64,000 nucleotides of DNA from a virus (taxonomy: Duplodnaviria > Caudoviricetes). The notes under the pieces were generated by a model. That model saw only the letters and a program-made list of their open reading frames with translations. It had not been told where the DNA came from and made no database searches. A program made the translations under genes and the position numbers. Shown here in pieces: positions 9,633 to 48,232 of this stretch. The stretch's first letter is position 1, and every line of letters begins with the position of its first letter. The stretch covers positions 1 to 64,000 of the IMG/VR virus record IMGVR_UViG_3300014019_000001. The stretch is one strand, 5' to 3'.

Positions 9633-12600
9633 TCAAACTTCAATAGAAATGAACTTGTTGGTGAAGTCGATGACGAACTTGCCGTCGTCGGATTGCGCTC
9701 GTCCGGCCGTGATGAGGCCGAGGTTGGTCGAGACGGCCGAGAGCGAGGTGACATCCATATTGTCTGCCTTCACGGCGCCCGCCTTGAGCTGCATGGTATC
9801 GATGGAGTCGGTCTTGATCTGACCACCATCGATCACCGTTCGGCCGTAGGTCGCGAACAACCACACGCCGCCCTTGTAGGTCGCCAGAATGACGTGATCG
9901 TCCTGGTTGGCGATGGACAGGTTGTTCGTGACGTGGAGCTGCTCTTCGTCCTTGATCCAGTAGACGAACATCGTGCCCGCTGTCCAATCGGCGTGACCGG
10001 CTGGAATGGCCTTCGTCATGACGGCGCCATCATCCCCGACATAGGCGATGGTTCCCGCAGACCAGGAGACGCTATTCACGGCAGGGCTGTTGTGCTCGAA
10101 GGTGATGCCATCGACAGTGATGCCGCGCATACCGATCACCACGGCATTCGCCTTGACGGTGTTTGCCGCCAGCGCGCCGCCGTTGATCTCGGTGCTGTCT
10201 CCGCCCATGGCCCAGTTGTCGAGGGTGCCGGTGTTGGAGACCTTGATCTTGCCAGGCTCGATCAGGGTGCTCTTGGCGTTCACACGCGCTGCGGGATCGG
10301 CCGCGCGATCTGCCACTGTGCCCAGGCTATCCCCATCCTCAACGATGACAGTCTTCGAAATCGTGGTGTTTGCCTGGATTTTCTCGGCCGAAAGGCTTTC
10401 GATCTTCGCCGACGAAACCACAGCATCCTTGAGCTGAAGGGTGTTTGTGATGACGGCATCATTCACCACAAGCTGCTGGGCGCCGACCGTGCCAGCGATC
10501 AGCGTGTTGCCATCGATCATCACCTTGCCGTCGGCCATCTGGAGATCAGTGCCGCCGCGATACACGGCGATCGGAAGACCGTCGTGAAGGAACATGTCGG
10601 TGATCGAGGTGCCGGTGCGCAGCACGGTCTCACCCTCGACATAGTAGATGTAGAGAGAGCCCGCCGACCATTCGGCGCTTCCCGCCGTCACGGTCTGGGT
10701 GTTCACCCCCTGAAGAGCGTTGCCAACGGCGATTTCGAAGATGTTCCACTCAACGTGGTTGTTCTCGGGGGCGTTCGGCGTCAGAACGAGACCGGTGATC
10801 TGGAGGCGCTTCGGCTCAGGAATGGTGGCCGTCACGCCGCTCTTCATCGCCGTGAGCTCGCTCCGATTGCCGGAGGTGTCGACGGCTCGAAGCCAGTAGA
10901 AGCGCTGGACCAAGTTCTCAAGCCCCGTGCGCGCGAACGATGCGCCCGGCGTCTTCCCGATGACCTCGGCGGCGTCCTCGTCGTTCGTTTCGCTTTCGAG
11001 CACCTCGATATAGGCAAGATCCTCCTCGGCGGGGTTGGTCCACGAGAGCCAGAAGGAGGTGAGGCCAGTTGTGATGGAGAAGTTCGTCGGCGTCGCGGGA
11101 GGAGTGGTGTCAGCAACGACGACGTGCTCGACCTCGCTCGTGTAGGGCGAGCGATTGCCGGCGAGATCGTAGGCACGCAGGCGGACCTTGTAGGTCACGC
11201 CGGGCAGGACGCGCCATTCATAGCTCGTGGAGGACGTGAGCGCGGAGATCCAGTTGCCCGAGCCCTGCTTGATCTCGATGTCATAGCCGGCGAGGTCGTC
11301 TTCCGTGTTCTCGACCCACTGGGCGACGAGCTTCGCCAGACCACCTTCAAGATGCGACTGAAGCGCAAGGCCGGCGGGGGTCTCCGGCGCTTCCAGGTCG
11401 ATGCCGCTGACGGCCGTCACGATCTGCAATTCGGGCGAGATGTTCAGATCTTCCCGTCCGAAGGCGTCGTAAGCGGCGAACCGGCAATAGTAGGTCGTTG
11501 ACGGCTCGGCCGGAAAGATGATCATGCTGTCAGCCGAGTCCGTCCACACCGGCGTCGTCAGGGGATCGAAGCCCGTCCCGCTCTCCACCCACACCAGGAA
11601 GCCAGCGAAATCGGCTTCCTGTGCCTGCGTGGCGAAGTGAAAGTAGATCTGGTCTTTCGTGACGTAGGTCATCGGGACGATGGCCGCCGGCGCCAGATTG
11701 CTGAACTCGGCAGTTGCGACTGCCGAAGTGCGATCAAAGGTGTCGGTGACTGTGACTTCAAGACGCACCGCGCGGCGCGCGGAAGGCAATCCCTTCGCGG
11801 TGGCGTCAGCCGCGTTCATCTCGTGGGTGTAGAGAAGGGTCGGACCAGACGTCTCCTGCTCGCGCAGAAGAACGCCCGTCTTCACGTCGAAAATCTTGAC
11901 CGTGTTGTGCTTGTAGAAGGGCGACCAGCCCGGCGTCAGCACGCCGTCATCGGACGTCGGGTCGGAGGAGCCAGCGAAGCTATTGTCCCAGGCAATATTG
12001 ATGTCGCGGCCGACGAACTGCGTTCCCGGCCGATCTGCCAGGCGAATGTTCGTCACGGTCGGCAGAGGAATGCCAGCCGGGCCAATGGCCTCGTATTCGA
12101 CTTCGACCCAATCGGACGGCCGTTTGGTGGCGCTTCGCGAGCGAACCGAGAATGTGTAGGGGCCGGGAGAGACATCATTGAGCTCAACCCAGGTCTTTTC
12201 CGTCTCGCCGTAATTGATCTCGCCGTCGAACGGCGTGATGATCTTCACGTCGAAGGAGCGAGCAATTGCCGTCGGGTTCGGCGACCACGAAAAGAGGATG
12301 CGCGAGCGCTGGGTGCCGTTGAGCTGGTAGAAGACCTCGCGCACCTTGAGGTTTTCCGGCGGCAGCGAGATATCCTTCGGGCGCGTGTAGGGCAGCGGGT
12401 CGAAAACGATGTTCTGCTCGACACGGGCGTATTTCAGCGGGTCGTGGAAAAGCGCCGTCACCTTGAAGACGTTCTTTTCCTCCTCCTGCACGGACAGCAC
12501 GCGGAACTGGCGCGGCACGATGTCCGTGCCGACGATGGCATACATCGCATCCGGCAACAGATCTTCGGCATAGGGCTCGTCAAGAACGGGCGTGTGAGCA

Positions 12601-14324
12601 TTCAGCCAACCGACGATGGCGCGTGTCTCCAGCTTGCCAGCGGGCAGCGCGGCCATCAGCGCGTAGGTTTCCCCAGGCGTTGCCTCAAAGTCACCGTCGA
12701 GATCGACCGTCTTGGCCGGAACATCATAGCCGCGAATTCGACCAGCGAAGCGCACTTGCGCCTTTGCCGGATCGGCGACGGCGACGATATCGCCCGGACG
12801 CACCTCGGCGTGATCCCAGCTCGCCTGGTATTCGACGGTCTCGTTTTCGTGCTGCTCGACGTCCAGGATCCACTTGCCATAACGGTGCGCCAGGCCCCGA
12901 GACGTGCAGCCATCGAAGGTGACGTTCTTCTCGCGCCAGCCATAACGACGGAGCATGGCATCGTTGATGACCACCTCGATCGTGGACTGGTAGAAATCGT
13001 CCGGGTCGTTCCACTTCACAAGCACAACGGAATGGCGCGCCTTCAGAGCCGTGCCGGAATAGTTGAACTCGCCGCCGATGACGTTCGCCGGGGTGACAAT
13101 CTTGATCGGGTCGGCCGGGATGTCGGCCGTCGCGAAGACCTGGCCGAGCGACCAGTAAGCCATCCCGCGCCACGCCGTCGTGACCGACTGGAGGACGTGA
13201 TAGGCTTCCTCGCGCGTGTTGATGACCCCGTTGAAGGTGAAGCGGGGCTCCATCACGTCTTCGCCGGTCACAGTATTCTTGTAGCCGGAAGGCACGAGCT
13301 GGTCGCAATATTGGGCGATCGTGTAGAGCGACCACTTGTCGACGATCTCCGGCCGGATGAACTCGCCAAGGCCGTATCGATCGTTGGTGATCAGGTCATA
13401 GAAGATCCAGGCCGGATTGTTCGTCCAGGAGCGCTTGAAGGTGCCGTCCCAGATGCCGGTATAGGTGCGCGTCTCCACGTTATAGTTGGACGGCACCTGA
13501 ACCTTGATACCGCGAACGTGGTAGGAGCGCGCCGGCACGCTGTTGCCCATATCCTCGCCATTGACTTCCATGGCGACGGCGGCGGTGTGCGGATAGATGT
13601 ATTTGCCATCGACGATGACGACGTAGCCTTCCCACCACAGCTCATTCTGGAGCTCGATGACGGTTGCGTCGTCGGTGACGCGCTCAACACGAATGTCCCA
13701 AGGGGAGCCGTTGAGAGGCAGCTCGACACGATGGGCAATCTGATAGGGGCTGGTGCACTTCTCGTTCTTGATATCCTTCTCGACCGCCAGCGCCCAGGCG
13801 CCGCCGTAGGGACGCACCCAGATGCGATACGAGAGCGAGGCCGTCTGCATGACGCCCTTCGACTTGTTCTGGTAGAAGAGTGCAGGGACGCGCAACAGCA
13901 GCCGCACGGCGTCAGCGTTCGCGTCGACAATGGTGCGCTGGACCGGGCCGACGCTCTTACGGATCTGGACTTCGACCTGATGCGGGGTCTCGACGCCGGC
14001 ATGCCCTGGGAAGTGTCCCTCGTCCGGCAGTCCCTTGTGCTCAGTCCAGTTGACGTTCTTGAAATTGAACGAGTCGTCGGGGTTCTGAAGCGGCGTCTGC
14101 TCGAAGTAGATGGACTTGGCGCCATTCACGAGGCCCTCAATCTCCCCTTCGGAGATCGCCTCGATCATGCGCACGCGCGCCTTGGAGCGCAGCGTATTGT
14201 CGGCGTCCTTGCCGCCGCTACCGCCGCCCTTGCCTTTCCCGCCGCCACCACCAGAGCCGCGAACACGCAGCTCAGCCAGATCCTCGGCCAGCGCCTGGGC
14301 GCCGCTATCCTGCCAGTGTTCCAT
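9633..14324 (-). CDS. Tail tip / host specificity protein (lambda J-like) with FN3 domains
   Basis: ISEGEIEGL, WTNNPAWIFYDL..RYGLG, EPRFTFNG, GCTSRGLAHR.GKW motifs; FN3 repeats (YRVRLRA.D.AGNRS-like). Confidence 0.95.
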   Translation of the reverse strand: MEHWQDSGAQALAEDLAELRVRGSGGGGGKGKGGGSGGKDADNTLRSKARVRMIEAISEGEIEGLVNGAKSIYFEQTPLQNPDDSFNFKNVNWTEHKGLPDEGHFPGHAGVETPHQVEVQIRKSVGPVQRTIVDANADAVRLLLRVPALFYQNKSKGVMQTASLSYRIWVRPYGGAWALAVEKDIKNEKCTSPYQIAHRVELPLNGSPWDIRVERVTDDATVIELQNELWWEGYVVIVDGKYIYPHTAAVAMEVNGEDMGNSVPARSYHVRGIKVQVPSNYNVETRTYTGIWDGTFKRSWTNNPAWIFYDLITNDRYGLGEFIRPEIVDKWSLYTIAQYCDQLVPSGYKNTVTGEDVMEPRFTFNGVINTREEAYHVLQSVTTAWRGMAYWSLGQVFATADIPADPIKIVTPANVIGGEFNYSGTALKARHSVVLVKWNDPDDFYQSTIEVVINDAMLRRYGWREKNVTFDGCTSRGLAHRYGKWILDVEQHENETVEYQASWDHAEVRPGDIVAVADPAKAQVRFAGRIRGYDVPAKTVDLDGDFEATPGETYALMAALPAGKLETRAIVGWLNAHTPVLDEPYAEDLLPDAMYAIVGTDIVPRQFRVLSVQEEEKNVFKVTALFHDPLKYARVEQNIVFDPLPYTRPKDISLPPENLKVREVFYQLNGTQRSRILFSWSPNPTAIARSFDVKIITPFDGEINYGETEKTWVELNDVSPGPYTFSVRSRSATKRPSDWVEVEYEAIGPAGIPLPTVTNIRLADRPGTQFVGRDINIAWDNSFAGSSDPTSDDGVLTPGWSPFYKHNTVKIFDVKTGVLLREQETSGPTLLYTHEMNAADATAKGLPSARRAVRLEVTVTDTFDRTSAVATAEFSNLAPAAIVPMTYVTKDQIYFHFATQAQEADFAGFLVWVESGTGFDPLTTPVWTDSADSMIIFPAEPSTTYYCRFAAYDAFGREDLNISPELQIVTAVSGIDLEAPETPAGLALQSHLEGGLAKLVAQWVENTEDDLAGYDIEIKQGSGNWISALTSSTSYEWRVLPGVTYKVRLRAYDLAGNRSPYTSEVEHVVVADTTPPATPTNFSITTGLTSFWLSWTNPAEEDLAYIEVLESETNDEDAAEVIGKTPGASFARTGLENLVQRFYWLRAVDTSGNRSELTAMKSGVTATIPEPKRLQITGLVLTPNAPENNHVEWNIFEIAVGNALQGVNTQTVTAGSAEWSAGSLYIYYVEGETVLRTGTSITDMFLHDGLPIAVYRGGTDLQMADGKVMIDGNTLIAGTVGAQQLVVNDAVITNTLQLKDAVVSSAKIESLSAEKIQANTTISKTVIVEDGDSLGTVADRAADPAARVNAKSTLIEPGKIKVSNTGTLDNWAMGGDSTEINGGALAANTVKANAVVIGMRGITVDGITFEHNSPAVNSVSWSAGTIAYVGDDGAVMTKAIPAGHADWTAGTMFVYWIKDEEQLHVTNNLSIANQDDHVILATYKGGVWLFATYGRTVIDGGQIKTDSIDTMQLKAGAVKADNMDVTSLSAVSTNLGLITAGRAQSDDGKFVIDFTNKFISIEV

Positions 14325-41325: not shown

Positions 41326-41778
41326 TCAATCACTGTGCTTCACCGAACGCACCTCGCCGCCGGTCCATGGGTCGACCTCAATGGTCAGCCGGATCGCGTC
41401 CTCGGCGCTCTTGCCCAGCTTCATCGCCATGTAGGCGCTCTGCTGCCCGGAGCCGATGGCGTAGAAGTCGGCTTTGACCGGTCCTGTGAATGCCCGGCCG
41501 TCGTTCCAGTAGAAGGCAGATCCGTCCGGCTCGACGACCAGCGCCTGAACAAGGTGCTCCTGATCGGCCACAGCGCGCTCCAGGGCGGCGTCATCCGGTA
41601 GACTGTTCAACCAGGCCAGAAAGTTGCTGGGCGCGCCCACGACGCTGCTGGAGACGCCCACAAGGCGGCCGCCGCGCAGGCGAAAGACCTTGGTCTTGTT
41701 CCCGATGGGATGCTTGTCGCCGGAATAGGCCCGGCTGTCACCTGCGAGGATGCCGGCGCGATAGGCGATTGTCGTCAT
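41326..41778 (-). CDS. Ntn-hydrolase / HslV-like peptidase
   Basis: N-terminal MTTIA..AGDSR, AIGSG, D..TGG. Confidence 0.8.
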   Translation of the reverse strand: MTTIAYRAGILAGDSRAYSGDKHPIGNKTKVFRLRGGRLVGVSSSVVGAPSNFLAWLNSLPDDAALERAVADQEHLVQALVVEPDGSAFYWNDGRAFTGPVKADFYAIGSGQQSAYMAMKLGKSAEDAIRLTIEVDPWTGGEVRSVKHSD

Positions 41779-42116
41779 GCAAGATCGCCCAGAATGCGCT
41801 TCGGCTGCATGATCGCCCGGTTGAGGCGATAGAAGGCGTCCTCGACGTGCCGGCGCGCGATCTGCACGGAAGCTTGGTCGATCTCCTGGCTGTCCCGGTT
41901 GCGAACGTGCTCATCGACGCGGCGCAGAACCTTTTCCTCCAGGATCTTGTTCTCGTTCACCATGTCGATCTTCCACTGCTCGACGGTCTTGGCGTAGCCG
42001 GCGACGGGCAGGCCGGAATGACCGGGAATAGGCGAGGGCGCCTTCTGGTCGTCAAAGAGGGGAAGTTGATGCGTGTCGGCAACCTCGGCGGCACGCTGCT
42101 GCTCGGTTCGGTCCAT
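41775..42116 (-). CDS. Acb2-like anti-CBASS sponge
   Basis: VAGY..IDMVNENK...IAR..VE.AF..LNRAIMQP follows the Acb2 pattern; true start 42116 (longer ORF overlaps tRNA). Confidence 0.7.
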   Translation of the reverse strand: MDRTEQQRAAEVADTHQLPLFDDQKAPSPIPGHSGLPVAGYAKTVEQWKIDMVNENKILEEKVLRRVDEHVRNRDSQEIDQASVQIARRHVEDAFYRLNRAIMQPKRILGDLA

Positions 42117-42142
42117 TCGATGATCCTGTGGGGTAGGGGAGT

Positions 42143-42218
42143 TGGCTGAGGAGGCTGGGCTCGAACCAGCGACAGGGCGATTAACAGTCGCCAGCTCTAC
42201 CATCTGAGCTACTCCCCA
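42143..42218 (-). tRNA. tRNA-Asn (GTT)
   Basis: Cloverleaf with anticodon loop CTGTTAA, TTCGAG T-loop, G73, encoded CCA. Confidence 0.95.
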
Positions 42219-42299: not shown

Positions 42300-42550
42300 T
42301 TGATGGGAAGATCCTAAGTAAGTGATTACCTACAGTCAAGCGCGATTTAGCGAAAAGGCTATTTGGCTATAGAGCGCTATCGCTAGGAGAGGTGGCTACA
42401 GGCAGTTCCGGATCTGTGGGGCCGGGGTAGACGCAACTTAGGTCAAGGTCCATCTCGTCGGGACACAGAGGAGAGGTGGCTAGGATGCCGGGGAGTTGGT
42501 GAGCGATGGAGGTATCCCCTTGAAATCACACGCAAATCTCTAAGACTTCG

Positions 42551-42580
42551 CTTGCACTACTCGCAGCAAACGTCTAATGT
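42551..42580 (+). promoter_or_regulatory. Sigma70-type promoter of the GG-free island
   Basis: cTTGCAC-N17-TAATGT, close to rhizobial CTTGAC-N17-CTATAT consensus. Confidence 0.7.
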
Positions 42581-42615
42581 GTATTCATCAACAGAGAGCA
42601 AGTAGCTCAGTTGAT

Positions 42616-42645
42616 TTGAAGCAAGCGCTTCAAGCTCTTTGACAT
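42616..42645 (+). promoter_or_regulatory. Hairpin + boxA-like antitermination signal
   Basis: TTGAAGC-AAGC-GCTTCAA hairpin directly followed by GCTCTTTGACAT. Confidence 0.55.
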
Positions 42646-42719
42646 TCGAATAGATGACATGCGACGCATCCCGATTGAGCGCGTTCATGTCACAGAAAGC
42701 TAATATTTCATCTTCAATA

Positions 42720-42739
42720 GTAAGTCATTACTGACTTAC
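42720..42739. promoter_or_regulatory. Operator palindrome (perfect copy of the ~28-member family)
   Basis: GTAAGTCA-TTAC-TGACTTAC upstream of the RBS of 42761. Confidence 0.85.
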
Positions 42740-42760
42740 ACAACATGAGAGAGAACGAAC

Positions 42761-43336
42761 ATGACTGACAATAACAACGTATTCTCGACCGCTCTTAACG
42801 CTCGCGTTGACGCTGCTGTCAAAGCTGACAAGATGAGCGAGAGCAACCGTGAGAAGCTTCGCAACTTCGCGAAAGAGTGCAACAAGTCTGAAAAGCTCGT
42901 CGCTTTCTTGAGCGCGTGCGCTGTTGACGTGCGCGTATTTGAAAACGACGTCTACGAGATCGACAAGCTGCGCAATCTGTCGCGCTTCGCAGTCGATGAA
43001 ATCGCAGCGCGCGATTTCAACGAAATGAACAGATGCGTGTTCCTGACAGCGCTCGCTTTCGAACGCGCTGATATCGCGTTCACGAGAGAAGACGCGACAC
43101 ACGCTTGCAGCGCGCATTACAAAATCAAAGACGCGAAAAAGCGCGCGCTGACTTCGCAGAACGCAAAGACTGTCGCTGACAGCACAGTCGCATCGCAGCA
43201 TAGAAGCTCGCTCAAAGCGCTTGAAGCGCTGAACGTGCTTCGCAGCGTCAACAAGAGCGAGTTTCGCATGAACCTGCAAAGCGATGCGACGATTAAGCTC
43301 GCAGCGAAATTCAATATCGACCTGACGGCTAAGTAA
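42761..43336 (+). CDS. Gly/Pro/Trp-free protein, probable winged-helix regulator, paralog of 44351..45136
   Basis: 191-aa ORF with own promoter and leader; C-terminal STVASQ..SSLKALEALNVL..EFRMN wHTH-like; visible similarity to 44351..45136. Confidence 0.8.
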   Translation: MTDNNNVFSTALNARVDAAVKADKMSESNREKLRNFAKECNKSEKLVAFLSACAVDVRVFENDVYEIDKLRNLSRFAVDEIAARDFNEMNRCVFLTALAFERADIAFTREDATHACSAHYKIKDAKKRALTSQNAKTVADSTVASQHRSSLKALEALNVLRSVNKSEFRMNLQSDATIKLAAKFNIDLTAK

Positions 43337-43422
43337 GCACTTACTGCTAGAGCGCTAGAAATAGCGCTCTAGCTATTTCGCTAAATAGCCCAACCGGGCA
43401 TCCCGCGCCCCTGGAGCCACCC

Positions 43423-43584
43423 ATGAACCTCCTCCTGATCGCCGTTGGCGTGCTCTTTGCCGTCATCCGCGCAGCCGCCTGCTATCTGGACCCTCATCCG
43501 GGCAACCAGTTCAACCTCATCATGAGCCTGCTCCTTGCCGGCGTCCTCATCGTCGGCAGCCTGGAACAGCCGGACTATGTATGA
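43423..43584 (+). CDS. Small two-TM protein (not in ORF track)
   Basis: RBS GGAG; MNLLLIAVGVLFAV...LLLAGVLIVG. Confidence 0.55.
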   Translation: MNLLLIAVGVLFAVIRAAACYLDPHPGNQFNLIMSLLLAGVLIVGSLEQPDYV

Positions 43585-43771
43585 GCTGCTCCTGATCACC
43601 ATCGTCAGCGCGTCCAGCGCTGGCGCCTCCGCCATCGAGACCCAGGCGATCGAGACCTACGATACCGCCGACGCCTGCCTCGATGCCGTCAGCCAGATGC
43701 CGATCCGGAAGATCCAGCTCCCGACCGGACAGACCCTCACCCTGAAACTCGCCTGCGAGAAACGACCATGA
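43577..43771 (+). CDS. Small secreted protein
   Basis: Signal-like N-terminus MYELLLITIV; Y.T..AC...C pattern. Confidence 0.55.
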   Translation: MYELLLITIVSASSAGASAIETQAIETYDTADACLDAVSQMPIRKIQLPTGQTLTLKLACEKRP

Positions 43772-43953
43772 GCAAGCACCAGCCCGTGCAGGACGACACC
43801 TGCCGCCACAAATTCAAACCGTCGACACTGGCAGCCAGACAGGCTGCCTACGACACCCTGGACGAGGATTGGCTCGATGACGTCGAGCACCTGGCGTTGC
43901 CGCACTATCGCTTCGGCGATGGCGTGCGCCACTACCTGGAAGGAATCGAATAG
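43768..43953 (+). CDS. Hypothetical protein
   Basis: ATGA-coupled ORF. Confidence 0.5.
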   Translation: MSKHQPVQDDTCRHKFKPSTLAARQAAYDTLDEDWLDDVEHLALPHYRFGDGVRHYLEGIE

Positions 43954-44303
43954 CCCCAAGGCGCCCTACCAAGGGCGCCAGCGGGAGCCGCCCGCCGACC
44001 CATGGAAGCCCACGGAGCCCCGTGGAGAGCGTTTCCCATGGTCGCATGAGCGCTGGCCCGTCCGAAGGGCCAAACGCGCGTCCTGGGCCGCCTGTGCCAA
44101 TATGCGCCCCATGGGGTGCCATGGCGAAAGCCCGAAATCAGGAAATAGCGAAATCGGGAAAGGAATACGAAGGTGCTGGTCCTACGGCCGACCAGCACCG
44201 GATCCCATGGAGCCCACCGGTTCCCCTAAGCCGCTCCGCCTGAATTCGCCCTAGGCTCACAATCGCCGCCCATGGAAACCCATGGGCCGTAACCCGCCAC
44301 GAA

Positions 44304-44332
44304 GAAGGGCAGCCCGTAGACTGCCCTCTCGT
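44304..44332. terminator. Terminator-like hairpin between convergent units
   Basis: AGGGCAG-CCCGTAGA-CTGCCCT. Confidence 0.55.
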
Positions 44333-44350
44333 TCTCTCTGGACTTGTGCC

Positions 44351-45136
44351 TTACGCCGCCAGCACCTCCTGGAGGCGCTTGGTCTGCGGCGTGTCGGTCA
44401 GCTCGTAGACGGGCGCGCGGAACGTGCCGGAGTTCTTGACGATGCCCATCGTCTGGAGAGCCGTCATGGTCGAGGACGTCTGCGTCGACATGGTGCCCGG
44501 ATCGACGGTGTGGCGGATGAGGATCTTCTGCATGGCGGCGCTGACCTTCACCTTGTCGCAGGCTGCAGCCTTCGCCATCTCCCCGGTGAACTTCTCGCCG
44601 GCGGCGCGGAAGGCGAAGAGGCTCTTGCAGATGGCGATGTTGATCTTGTTGGTCAGGGCGCCGTCCCGGAGACCCTTCACCAGGTCAGCGAGCTTGTCCG
44701 CCGCGTAGACGTTGAAGCGGCTGCCTTCCGAGACGGACCGGTTGATGAAGTCGGGCTCGACCTGGGCGGCGATGAGGATTGCCGCTGCGGAGGGCAGGGT
44801 GAGCTTGGCGCGCGTCTTGTCCAGGCTCTTGTGGATCCGCTCGTTGTTCGGGTTCTTGGTCTTCTCGTAGGTCGCCCGGTCGTCGAAGCCCTTGGCGACC
44901 TTCTGCGCCATTGCCAGCTTCTGCTCGTCCGTGTAGCTGTCAGCGATCTGGGGCAGGGTGAGCTCGACAGCGCCGTCGCCGGCCGGGCCGGGGTCAGACT
45001 GGACCGTTTCCGAGACTACGACAGTATTGCCGTCGCCCGTTTCGAGACCGGCGAGAATAGCAACTTCGTGATCCGTGATGACTTCCTCGGATACGACGGT
45101 CGCCTGTGCCTTCTTTGCGTTGTTGTTCTTAGCCAT
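44351..45136 (-). CDS. Probable winged-helix regulator, normally coded paralog of 42761..43336
   Basis: NVYAADKL..N..N..AF..FT.E.A..TV..T.STQ.SS..AL..GIV; start MAKNNN. Confidence 0.8.
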   Translation of the reverse strand: MAKNNNAKKAQATVVSEEVITDHEVAILAGLETGDGNTVVVSETVQSDPGPAGDGAVELTLPQIADSYTDEQKLAMAQKVAKGFDDRATYEKTKNPNNERIHKSLDKTRAKLTLPSAAAILIAAQVEPDFINRSVSEGSRFNVYAADKLADLVKGLRDGALTNKINIAICKSLFAFRAAGEKFTGEMAKAAACDKVKVSAAMQKILIRHTVDPGTMSTQTSSTMTALQTMGIVKNSGTFRAPVYELTDTPQTKRLQEVLAA

Positions 45137-45386
45137 TTCGTGTTTCCTTCTCTCTCGTTTTCCTCTCAAGCGCTTCATTGCTCTTGATGATTACAAGATA
45201 GAACGTGTCTCTATGGGTGTCGGCTGGGAAGAACAGGCATGTTGCATGGTAATACAGGACCGTTACTCCATGGGACCGGAAGGTTCTCCACGGAGCCCCA
45301 CGGAACGCCATGGCTGACCGTGGAGAGGGGAGGGCGAGCCATGGGCCGGGAAGATGATTTGTCCCTAAGGAGACGGCGCGCGTTTT

Positions 45387-45511
45387 ACGAGCCGGAGGAG
45401 TGCCATTTTAGTTTTCCCTTAATTCGCGTCTCCATACTATGTATATATACCCTTTAAAGACGTAATAACTTACTTAGTATGGAAGAGGCGAGGGAAGCGT
45501 CTCCGGCTCGT
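45387..45511. repeat. Inverted-repeat element, copy 3 of 3
   Basis: ACGAGCCGGAG..TTCCCT..TCCATACT / AGTATGGAAGAGGCGAGGGAAGCGTCTCCGGCTCGT. Confidence 0.8.
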
Positions 45512-46438
45512 GGGTTGGTAGGCGATTCCGTGGGTGGATGGGTTTCCGGCCGTGGAAGTCCGTGGTGAACCTTGGCGCGGCCACCTCACCACCGCTTTTC
45601 GATCGCCCTTCAATCTTCCTAGGCTCTTCGCTTTCTTCACCCTCTACGCGTTCACGCTGTCGCTCACTCTAGCCTCAGTCTCCCTATAGCTCTCCTAGGC
45701 TACGCTCCTTTCTACAGTCGCACGTTCACCTCATACGCACCTGGTCTTCTCCGGCTCGTGCTTCTTCTGGTGATCGCCCTTTCGCTCATTCGGGAAATAG
45801 CTATTTCGTGTGATCGCTATTGCGCTACGCCAGTGTGTTGCCAGTTGCTGCGTCTCCTGTGTGCTGTTTCGCTCAGGGTTGATCACCTGATAGCGTCCAT
45901 GACTCTTCTGCGTGTCGTTGCTGCTCTCGGGCGTGTTTGCTTGCTGGTGAGCTTCTATGCGTCTTTGAGGGTTTCGCCTGTTCATGGCTGTAGCGGTTTA
46001 CCGAAATCGCTTTTTCGCTATTTACGGATTTGGCTGCAAACCTGGTGCTAAGCTAGGGCTAAGGATCCTCTTATTCCGGATAAGAAGGTTGGCGGCCGGG
46101 CCTAGGTTCATTTCGATGGCGAAACGGTATGGAGCCATGGGATTGAGCGCCCGTGGAAGGCCGTGGAGTTGACGGCGCGCAAAGGAAAGGGCAGAGCGCG
46201 GAGAAAGGATAAGCCGCGACATCTGCCCTTTGGTAGGTGCCCAAGCACCCGGCGAGCGATAGTTTGCAGACTACCGCCGCCCTTCCTTTGCCTGACCTGC
46301 CGGGGGAGAAACTCCGGCATTCAGTGCTGTCGGTGTTATTCCACTAGGAGGGCGCATGAATCCCACCTGCTTGCACGACCGCCGACTGCGCGCTAGTAAC
46401 CGCTTACTTAGTTATAGCGGCCGGAGAGAGGCTTGCGC

Positions 46439-48154: not shown

Positions 48155-48232
48155 TGCTGTTCTCCTAAGTAATTCAATACTTAGAGAATAGCGTTTCGAC
48201 AGCCGGGTTACGGCTGGTTTGTTGCGGTAGGC

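Follow-up and report, generated by a model that had tools for sequence, protein, structure and literature searches.

The question raised by this locus is why a phage should keep two genes for what looks like one protein, one of them written almost entirely without the dinucleotide GG. The window analysed here comprises 64,000 nucleotides of a 116-kb genome, and both open reading frames are present where the first-pass annotation had placed them. The short paralogue, S (42761..43336, + strand), encodes 191 aa, a helical N-domain followed by a C-terminal winged-helix domain, while the long paralogue, Lg (44351..45136, - strand), encodes 261 aa from a start at 45136 that matches the Shinella annotation. 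Lg has a normal composition, with 15 Gly and 9 Pro, and S contains 0 Gly, 0 Pro and 0 Trp. Their kinship, previously claimed by eye, is borne out by a significant similarity in a single BLASTP comparison (E 2e-6, 28% identity over 107 aa, spanning all three blocks matched by eye), by profile-profile comparison in hhalign of 5 S sequences with 34 Lg sequences (probability 95.8%, E 6.7e-9, 130 columns), and by a shared fold containing a winged helix, with an identical order of helices and strands in the two structural models. In addition, the Lg profile recovers the S proteins of related loci with E down to 3e-36. The joint alignment takes in the whole of S and the C-terminal ~175 aa of Lg, whose N-terminus is a disordered acidic tail of ~55 aa and whose remainder forms the same core as S. 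S and Lg are true, ancient paralogues of one uncharacterised phage protein.

The difference in composition follows conserved positions. The substitutions quoted in the first-pass annotation (DPGT in Lg and ADST in S, likewise MGIV/LNVL and FTGE/FTRE) are real, and altogether ten conserved Gly/Pro columns of Lg are changed in S, which places Asn, Asp or Ala there and yet remains subject to purifying selection. That conserved Gly and Pro are a normal part of this fold is proved by Lg. The same annotation regarded S as the copy that was purged; the replacement itself stands, but its direction is something we infer, the tree being midpoint-rooted and therefore silent on which copy is ancestral. 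Both the pair and the purge are ancient and family-wide and not peculiar to this genome.

The exhaustive HMMER search returned 59 representatives, ~45 of them short forms sharing less than 50% identity with one another, and nearly all of these are devoid of Gly, Pro and Trp. A word-based protein search gave only 4 close homologues of S, the rest being reached by the exhaustive search; for Lg, more than 100 homologues were found. Phylogeny of the homologues sets S and Lg apart (support of the bipartition 0.994) with congruent subclades. In ~35 related phage-plasmids of the RHEph10/pLM21S1/B1VFA type the S gene lies 1-6 kb after the Lg gene, and two cultured phages, B1VFA and RHEph10, have the pair as well. 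The S genes of these two were reached through Lg and a local profile, and a tblastn search with S through 50,697 phage records gave no match at E 1e-3 although both phages carry S. Purifying selection acts on S, with dN/dS of 0.03-0.26 in the family and 0.12 in the comparison with the Shinella orthologue. Its evolution is faster than that of Lg, as seen from longer branches and higher dS, and at one locus (L008) a divergent S stands next to a conserved Lg. The duplication is old and has been kept as a pair in rhizobial phage-plasmids of this type.

In regard to nucleotide composition, a GG-free, CC-poor island extends over 42513..43326 on the + strand and includes a promoter-like element, a leader of ~210 nt and nearly the whole S gene. 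Given the G and C content of the island itself, 46.5 GG and 54.5 CC would be expected, and 0 and 10, respectively, were found; it is unique in the 116-kb genome and its longest GG-free run, the runner-up measuring 146 bp. When the S units of 27 related loci with a long island were pooled (26.3 kb), they contained 0 GG and 182 CC, with a CC rho of 0.10, and a rho of 1.7-1.8 for CG and GC. GG is thus excluded absolutely from the coding strand of the S unit and CC about ten-fold. In two lineages (L036 and L039) the ban is absent and the conserved element retained, and some lineages have a GG located 10-60 nt past this element, so that the ban is not absolute in them if transcription starts there. 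Since GG is missing from the non-coding leader, also in related loci, and from codon junctions, the rule acts on DNA or RNA, and S lacks Gly, Pro and Trp as a by-product of it. The replacement in S of Gly and Pro conserved in the normal copy likewise means that the nucleic acid, not the fold, is what the ban acts on. The rule is enforced on DNA or RNA, not on protein. Downstream of the gene, a perfect 12-bp hairpin GCTAGAGCGCTA/TAGCGCTCTAGC followed by TATTT (43346..43373, + strand), itself without GG or CC, is the likely S terminator. The Rfam scan showed two tRNAs only above threshold.

Every island begins at the same conserved element, which in this genome reads GGTATCCCC-N19-TCTAAGACTTCG (42511..42550, + strand) and is a candidate dedicated promoter of S at the 5′ edge of the island. 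The form kept in the family is GGCATCCCC-N19-CTAAGACTTCG, with the consensus GGCATCCCC(A/T)TCA-N16-CTAAGAC(T/A)TCG, and it occurs in one copy in this genome and in each related locus, always upstream of S and on its coding strand. In 20 of 28 loci, the distance from the last upstream GG to CTAAGAC is exactly 28 nt. A host sigma70 promoter had been proposed for this copy, but a scan for the sigma-70 consensus found none in front of S, and the family retains this different, genome-unique element instead. Closer to the gene, just upstream of a GG-free ribosome-binding site GAGAGAGAA, a perfect 8-bp inverted repeat, GTAAGTCA-N4-TGACTTAC (42720..42739, + strand), is also kept in the Shinella relative and may serve as an operator or form a hairpin in the leader. 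The 17-bp palindrome TAAGTAA-N3-TTACTTA had no full site in relatives, and enrichment was confined to its half-site, in roughly one locus out of two. A supposed likeness between ATCCCCA and the DnaA boxes of alphaproteobacteria was dropped, as the literature gave no support for it.

Lg has a different control region. The phage-type motif GACACCC-N11-TTCTAT noted earlier upstream of this copy was located at 45221-45197 of the minus strand. It falls within a candidate promoter, GCCGACACCC-N14-TATCTT (45195..45225, - strand), for which the Shinella counterpart is GCCGTAACCC-N14-TATCTT, that is, AACCC-N14-TATCTT. AACCC boxes 13-14 nt upstream of -10-like hexamers form a promoter class in this genome, the common phage type being AACCC-N14-TATNNT, and the extended class to which the Lg promoter belongs recurs at 48209, 60025 and 69761. 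The phage encodes a sigma factor of its own, which would be a more usual activator of AACCC-type promoters than S, the supposed starter of Lg and the middle genes in the bootstrap relay proposed earlier. Sequence comparison thus points to a genome-unique element in front of S as opposed to a common AACCC promoter with CCRYGG arrays for Lg. These hexamers are spaced by 10 bp and occur downstream of Lg (44000..44285; at 44000/10/20/36, 44109/19, 44205 and 44270/80) and just upstream of its promoter (45268..45344; at 45268, 45288, 45298, 45308, 45318 and 45339), the latter array being kept in Shinella with interchange of CCATGG, CCACGG and CCGTGG. Further phased groups (45528..46166; at 45528/50/60 and 46135/51/61) lie in a gene-poor stretch of 1.3 kb upstream of Lg, which also has an AT-rich block at ~45400-45480, and in the majority of related loci Lg is likewise bordered by phased clusters.

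An Acb2/Tad1-like gene and tRNAs are found beside S. ParA/ParG partition genes are located near the pair, and RepC (PF03428, 132.7 bits) is encoded 63 kb away, at 108035-108484; the element is a plasmid-prophage with a RepC-type replicon (PMC4447125). In the relative pLM21S1 no recognisable DNA methyltransferase is present (PMC5537653), and B1VFA has fixed ends with terminal repeats of 3.6 kb (PMC12509600). We considered whether the terminal repeat corresponds to the segment from S to Lg, as 42514 plus 3650 reaches the last CCRYGG array. The contig ends of 16 loci had no common mapping point, and the B1VFA record begins near tRNA-Cys.

No function has been assigned to S or Lg by any family, structure or paper found. 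Pfam holds no family for either at E up to 1, PHROGs gave nothing better than E 0.1, and look-ups in Atlas and BFVD returned only relatives without names. The models are confident, with a pLDDT of 92.3 for S and above 90 for residues 55-261 of Lg, and they agree with the first-pass view of a winged-helix (wHTH) fold, both showing a three-helix core with a beta-hairpin wing. In S these elements are helix 88-102, a short strand, helices 109-116 and 140-156 and the hairpin 160-170, with a matching set in Lg. All 50 top matches of the VIA structural search are winged-helix domains (58-95 residues aligned, falling on residues 81-187) with Z of 6.5-8.3, although the calibration given with the tool rates values of 7-8 as middling. 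The matches include kleisins and kite proteins, and winged-helix domains can bind proteins too. The top Foldseek match of Lg is a weak one to TubR (E 0.25, TM 0.25/0.51), and ORC/Cdc6 winged helices appear in the lists of both proteins, the fold matches being not significant (E >0.17). A profile search of PDB sequences found spurious cytochrome b562 fusions only, and prediction of a complex between the Lg core and S scored 0.00 ('no answer'), which speaks neither for nor against one. A helix with the pattern T-x3-Q-x2-S-S-x2-A-L is conserved in both families. Judging by the fold, both proteins may bind DNA, and the role of a regulator is a guess resting on the same ground.

Viewed against known winged-helix regulators (MarR, ArsR/SmtB, Fur and T4 MotA), the C-terminal 100 residues of S and Lg superpose on winged-helix domains (Z 6.5-8.3), including the N-domain of MotA, and the Thr/Gln/Ser-rich helix lies where a recognition helix would be expected. 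The match to the MotA N-domain (Z 6.8, rmsd 3.6, 79 residues) is tied with many other winged helices. Unlike these regulators, S and Lg have 25 residues inserted between helices 2 and 3 and carry an additional helical N-domain of 80 residues, neither belongs by sequence to the curated wHTH families (MarR, HTH_5, HTH_20 and others), and DNA binding is only predicted here. MotA of T4 is an activator working by sigma appropriation, its box replacing the -35 element at activated promoters, whereas the AACCC boxes of the present genome could be read by the phage's own sigma factor.

Our preferred explanation combines the ancient pair and the nucleic-acid rule with two suppositions, and as a whole we hold it tentatively, at a little under an even chance. 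S and Lg would both use the helix they share, T-x3-Q-x2-S-S-x2-A-L, to bind DNA and, given that helix, might recognise the same sites, for which the CCRYGG arrays are candidates. S would be the version that can still be produced while templates or transcripts bearing GG/CC are blocked, for example right after DNA entry or during shut-off, and Lg would be produced under the phage's own sigma programme. The strand asymmetry, with GG never and CC rarely found on the coding strand, would fit a block at CC of the template strand or at GG of the RNA. Against this explanation, the CCRYGG arrays may belong to another protein such as ParG, ParB-like proteins or RepC, the structural matches are of middling Z and of a domain type that also binds proteins, the ban is absent from L036 and L039 and may not be absolute in some lineages, and pLM21S1 lacks a recognisable DNA methyltransferase (PMC5537653). 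A more specific proposal, which we find possible but rather doubtful, is that these phages impose or face a block wherever the template has CC, and hence the transcript GG, and keep one unit free of it so that a spare copy of a DNA-binding protein can be made at a time when nothing else can. Such a block could come from virion DNA bearing a bulky mark at CC, or from a nuclease that is directed at GG and serves shut-off. In that case S would stand in for Lg as a starter or fail-safe version.

Alternatively, Lg could be a maintenance protein and not a transcription factor, an iteron or centromere binder coating the phased CCRYGG arrays that surround the Lg gene, with S, which lacks the tail, competing with it or helping it and so modulating copy number or the switch from plasmid to lytic growth. 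Hexamers phased at 10 bp on both sides of Lg and conserved in most loci, the gene-poor and partly AT-rich stretch upstream, the resemblance, albeit not significant, to TubR and ORC/Cdc6, and the nature of the element as a plasmid-prophage with ParA/ParG nearby (PMC4447125) would all suit this. However, RepC at 108 kb (PMC4447125) and the ParA/ParG cassette are already there, neither Lg nor S has a Rep_3 or RepC signature in Pfam, and the GG ban on S is left unexplained. We consider this alternative unlikely. As for the comparison it invites, the plasmid initiators P1 RepA and F RepE are flanked by iterons of 17-22 bp. Similar to these and to TubR-tubC, the Lg gene lies between short phased repeat arrays, one of them over its own promoter, but the repeats are 6-bp words every 10 bp and the genome has its RepC and ParA/ParG elsewhere.

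Less probable still is that S shares only ancestry with Lg and acts early against defence or in host takeover, its gene being free of GG/CC so that a host nuclease or defence system that recognises very short words containing GG/CC, in a PAM-like or restriction-like manner, does not reach it before it has acted, similar to the site-poor DNA of T5 or T7 that enters first. An Acb2/Tad1-like sponge gene and phage tRNAs adjoin S, which furthermore has its own unique control element and evolves faster than Lg, as the L008 locus illustrates, and B1VFA has the fixed ends and terminal repeats of T5-type phages (PMC12509600). On the other hand, guarding 0.8 kb leaves the other 115 kb exposed to a DNA-cutting defence, the asymmetry between GG and CC is not what double-strand recognition would produce, contig ends do not place virion ends relative to S, and the recognition helix common to both proteins argues for a shared target. 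Finally, the pairing could be an accident of composition, with S not being a real gene or the similarity arising by chance or convergence. The GG/CC-free stretch is indeed open in several frames on both strands, and the GenBank record of RHEph10 annotates a gene on the opposite strand (gp148, the wrong strand). This explanation is refuted by the dN/dS in the S frame, the profile matches between the families, the confident model of S with the same topology, and the synteny kept in 35+ loci.

Two known systems resemble the rule itself. The T5 pre-early (first-step-transfer) genes and the leading early region of T7 are a small set that has to function before the remaining genome can be used, and they are poor in host-nuclease sites, these phages avoiding particular sites of 4-6 bp. 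In contrast, the word banned here has 2 nt, its exclusion is absolute on one strand and limited to one transcription unit, and S has a paralogue of normal composition as a control. The likeness, which includes the fixed ends and long terminal repeats of B1VFA-type phages (PMC12509600), is by analogy, and first entry of S would be an assumption. At the RNA level, mRNAs lacking ACA escape the endoribonuclease MazF, every copy of a 3-nt word being removed, mostly as an engineered trick and in few natural genes. Removal of a short word from the transcript and the coding-strand asymmetry of the S unit fit such a rule, but it would not explain why CC is depleted as well. We know of no GG-specific RNase, and none was found in this analysis.

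The pair represents a built-in control, in which one genome has a single fold in two versions, the first retaining conserved Gly and Pro and the second having none at all. As the pattern recurs in ~30 lineages with only ~30% identity and saturated synonymous sites, selection against GG has been continuous, and pair and recurrence together prove that it is directed at a single dinucleotide within a single transcription unit. The literature search returned no described system, and no paper, with a dinucleotide rule of this kind. In practical terms, GG-free islands that are open on both strands mislead gene callers, as in RHEph10. The S family also builds from Asn and Asp those turns that normally need Gly, and demonstrates that a winged-helix protein is possible without Pro and Trp, which is useful for protein design; if the proposed block is true, the family would be a long natural experiment in making such a protein from 17 amino acids. 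For the widespread rhizobial phage-plasmids concerned, finding the cause of the ban should bring to light a DNA mark, a sequence-directed nuclease or block, or an entry strategy that is new.

The gene S (42761-43336, + strand; 191 aa with no Gly, Pro or Trp) and its longer partner of normal composition, Lg (44351-45136, - strand; 261 aa), are paralogues, as the first-pass annotation had proposed from an alignment by eye. They share 28% identity across 107 residues in BLASTP (E 2e-6), their family alignments match with 95.8% probability in hhalign (E 6.7e-9), and in the joint alignment the whole of S corresponds to the C-terminal 175 residues of Lg, with R15, Y65, K69, N87, L130, Q146 and A153 (S numbering) invariant. 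Both AlphaFold models are confident (pLDDT 92.3 for S, above 90 for the core of Lg) and present an identical succession of helices and terminal hairpin, and Lg additionally has an acidic, disordered tail some 55 residues long. The proposed replacement of Gly and Pro in the GG-free copy was likewise found: at ten columns where Lg conserves Gly or Pro, S has Asn, Asp, Ala or a gap, and 24 of 37 S sequences have Asn in place of the invariant Gly of LGIV in Lg.

In regard to function, S and Lg had no match in Pfam, PHROG or PDB sequences and no significant Foldseek match in PDB, while BFVD returned two unnamed phage proteins and nothing else. All VIA-align matches to residues 81-187 (Z 6.5-8.3) were winged-helix domains, including regulators, kleisins, ORC, histone H1 and MotA, so a winged-helix assignment is reasonable for the predicted structures; of the earlier "probable wHTH regulator", the fold is thus plausible, and the regulatory role is inferred. 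Since T142, Q146 and S149, in a helix at the recognition position, are kept in both families, a common target of S and Lg is suggested. CCRYGG hexamers at 10-bp spacing bracket Lg, and such phased clusters flank it in most loci; these equally conserved arrays are a candidate for that target.

The first 64 kb of a 116,399-bp virus record make up the window; CheckV puts this record at 99% complete, and its RepC lies at 108 kb. A 117-kb circular plasmid from Shinella zoogloeoides, which carries terminase, capsid and tail genes together with ParA, is a close relative, and Lg family members also occur in Rhizobium phages B1VFA, V1VFA-S, RHph_X66 and RHEph10 and in the phage-plasmid pLM21S1. Members of this group are described as plasmid-like prophages that carry ParA and a RepC-type replicon (PMC4447125, PMC5537653), and the ends of B1VFA are fixed, with a direct terminal repeat of 3.6 kb (PMC12509600). 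A word-based search turned up only four close homologues of S, and an exhaustive HMMER search across 1.84 billion representatives gave 59 matches; of these, about 45 are short forms, nearly all with zero Gly, Pro and Trp despite mutual identity below 50%. Related loci were drawn with the Lg profile (5 genomic and 35 viral); in almost all of them S lies 1-6 kb downstream of Lg, mostly on the opposite strand, and 29 of 33 S cores picked up by the joint profile are Gly-free. In the shared-core tree, 37 S and 39 Lg sequences separate cleanly (support 0.994) and their subclades are largely congruent, which argues for a single old duplication inherited together; judged by this phylogeny, the pair is ancient. 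With wider sampling, Lg forms one compact clade amid a broad S radiation, in a tree whose root is not placeable. S branches are longer than Lg branches, and one locus holds a window-like Lg (71% identity) beside a highly diverged S, so exchange of S among phages or a faster mutation rate may be at work.

The rule behind the GG-free S unit acts on nucleic acid. On the + strand, 42513-43326 contains no GG (46.5 expected) and 10 CC (54.5 expected), and all other GG-free stretches of the genome are at most 146 bp. The S coding strand is GG-free across 750-1700 bp in about 27 loci, where the background is 55-97 GG per kb. The 27 pooled islands (26.3 kb) hold 0 GG and 182 CC (observed/expected ratio 0.10), with CG and GC raised to 1.7-1.8 and with G still at 23% and C at 26%. 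The absence of GG extends to non-coding leaders (40-440 nt) and to all codon junctions, and in the cultured phage B1VFA both GG and CC are missing across at least 850 bp. With dN/dS of 0.03-0.26, S is, on sequence grounds, a working protein gene; its dS of 0.56-1.65 is above that of Lg, synonymous divergence being 1.6- to 4-fold that of Lg in the same genome pairs (the window's own locus/L001, L020/L023, L026/L040), and GG must therefore have been removed repeatedly. RHEph10 (JX483881) also has the island; there, GenBank places gp148 (10770-11486) on the + strand of the GG/CC-free stretch, which is the wrong strand, the S homologue being on the - strand (10863-11486, E 1.8e-31), and the annotated gp142 ends in another frame than the Lg match.

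Every island starts with a conserved element, GGCATCCCC(A/T)TCA-N16-CTAAGAC(T/A)TCG, single-copy per locus and in this genome (42511-42550), and the distance from the last upstream GG to CTAAGAC is exactly 28 nt in 20 of 28 loci. Immediately upstream of the island, at 42440-42512, there is a GG-rich block (22 GG per 200 bp), non-coding yet conserved with Shinella. The element departs from the sigma-70 consensus, and a consensus scan detected no sigma-70-like site ahead of S, contrary to the host promoter first assigned to it; however, TTGAAA and CTTGCA-N17-CTAATG upstream of S in the window's own clade are conserved with Shinella, so a putative host promoter is possible. The leader has a perfect inverted repeat just 5' of the GG-free ribosome site GAGAGAGAA, and a hairpin without GG or CC lies 3' of the stop codon.

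Upstream of Lg, the phage-type motif noted earlier was borne out as GCCGACACCC-N14-TATCTT, conserved in Shinella as AACCC-N14-TATCTT and resembling three further sites in the genome. A sigma-70-family protein (Sigma70_r2, E 1.7e-7; L048:1066-1713, genome 101754-102401, - strand), directly downstream of a CobS/MoxR-like ATPase, is likely to be the reader of AACCC-N13/14-TATNNT promoters; a T7-like RNA polymerase (PF00940) had no match in the genome, in a search that also missed its control genomes. Furthermore, TAAGTAAGTNATTAC (palindromic core TAAGTAA-N3-TTACTTA) has 25 sites in the window against 0.04 expected (e.g., 5494, 32329, 37234, 39120, 42315, 43330, 45462 on the - strand, 48166 and 59984). 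It often stands immediately 3' of the -10-like hexamers TATAxx or CATAC, so it probably serves a class of promoters as an operator or 5' hairpin. Enrichment of the TAAGTAA-N3-TTACTTA half-site extends to the Shinella plasmid and to roughly half of the related loci, and in others ATAGCTA or GTAGCTA is enriched.

S and Lg could represent two versions, separately controlled, of one putative DNA-binding function, with S written so as to evade a block that depends on CC in the template or GG in the transcript. The relay proposed earlier, in which S switches on Lg and the middle genes, is compatible with this reading, although the phage sigma factor would be a simpler switch for Lg-type promoters. 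Alternatively, Lg could be a maintenance protein acting on the CCRYGG arrays; 1.5 kb from S lies a type Ib partition cassette of ParA (CbiA/ParA/MipZ) and a 79-aa ParG-like ribbon-helix-helix protein (PF09274; 40326-41209, + strand). S itself could be an anti-defence protein; its neighbours, besides ParA/ParG, are two tRNAs and a gene for an Acb2/Tad1 hairpin domain product (PF24729, E 8e-10, above cut-off; 41775-42203, - strand), which may act as a sponge for the cyclic-nucleotide signals of defence systems (anti-CBASS/Thoeris). The long ORF of this gene overlaps tRNA-Asn, so its true start is probably internal.

Two lineages lack the exclusion of GG. In locus L036, the S protein (11684-12316, - strand) contains 8 Gly plus 3 Pro and there is no island, and in locus L039 the second copy (13218-13934, + strand) is of normal composition and runs antisense to the CTAAGACTTCG element, which this locus keeps. 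Both are useful negative genomes in the search for the cause of the GG exclusion.
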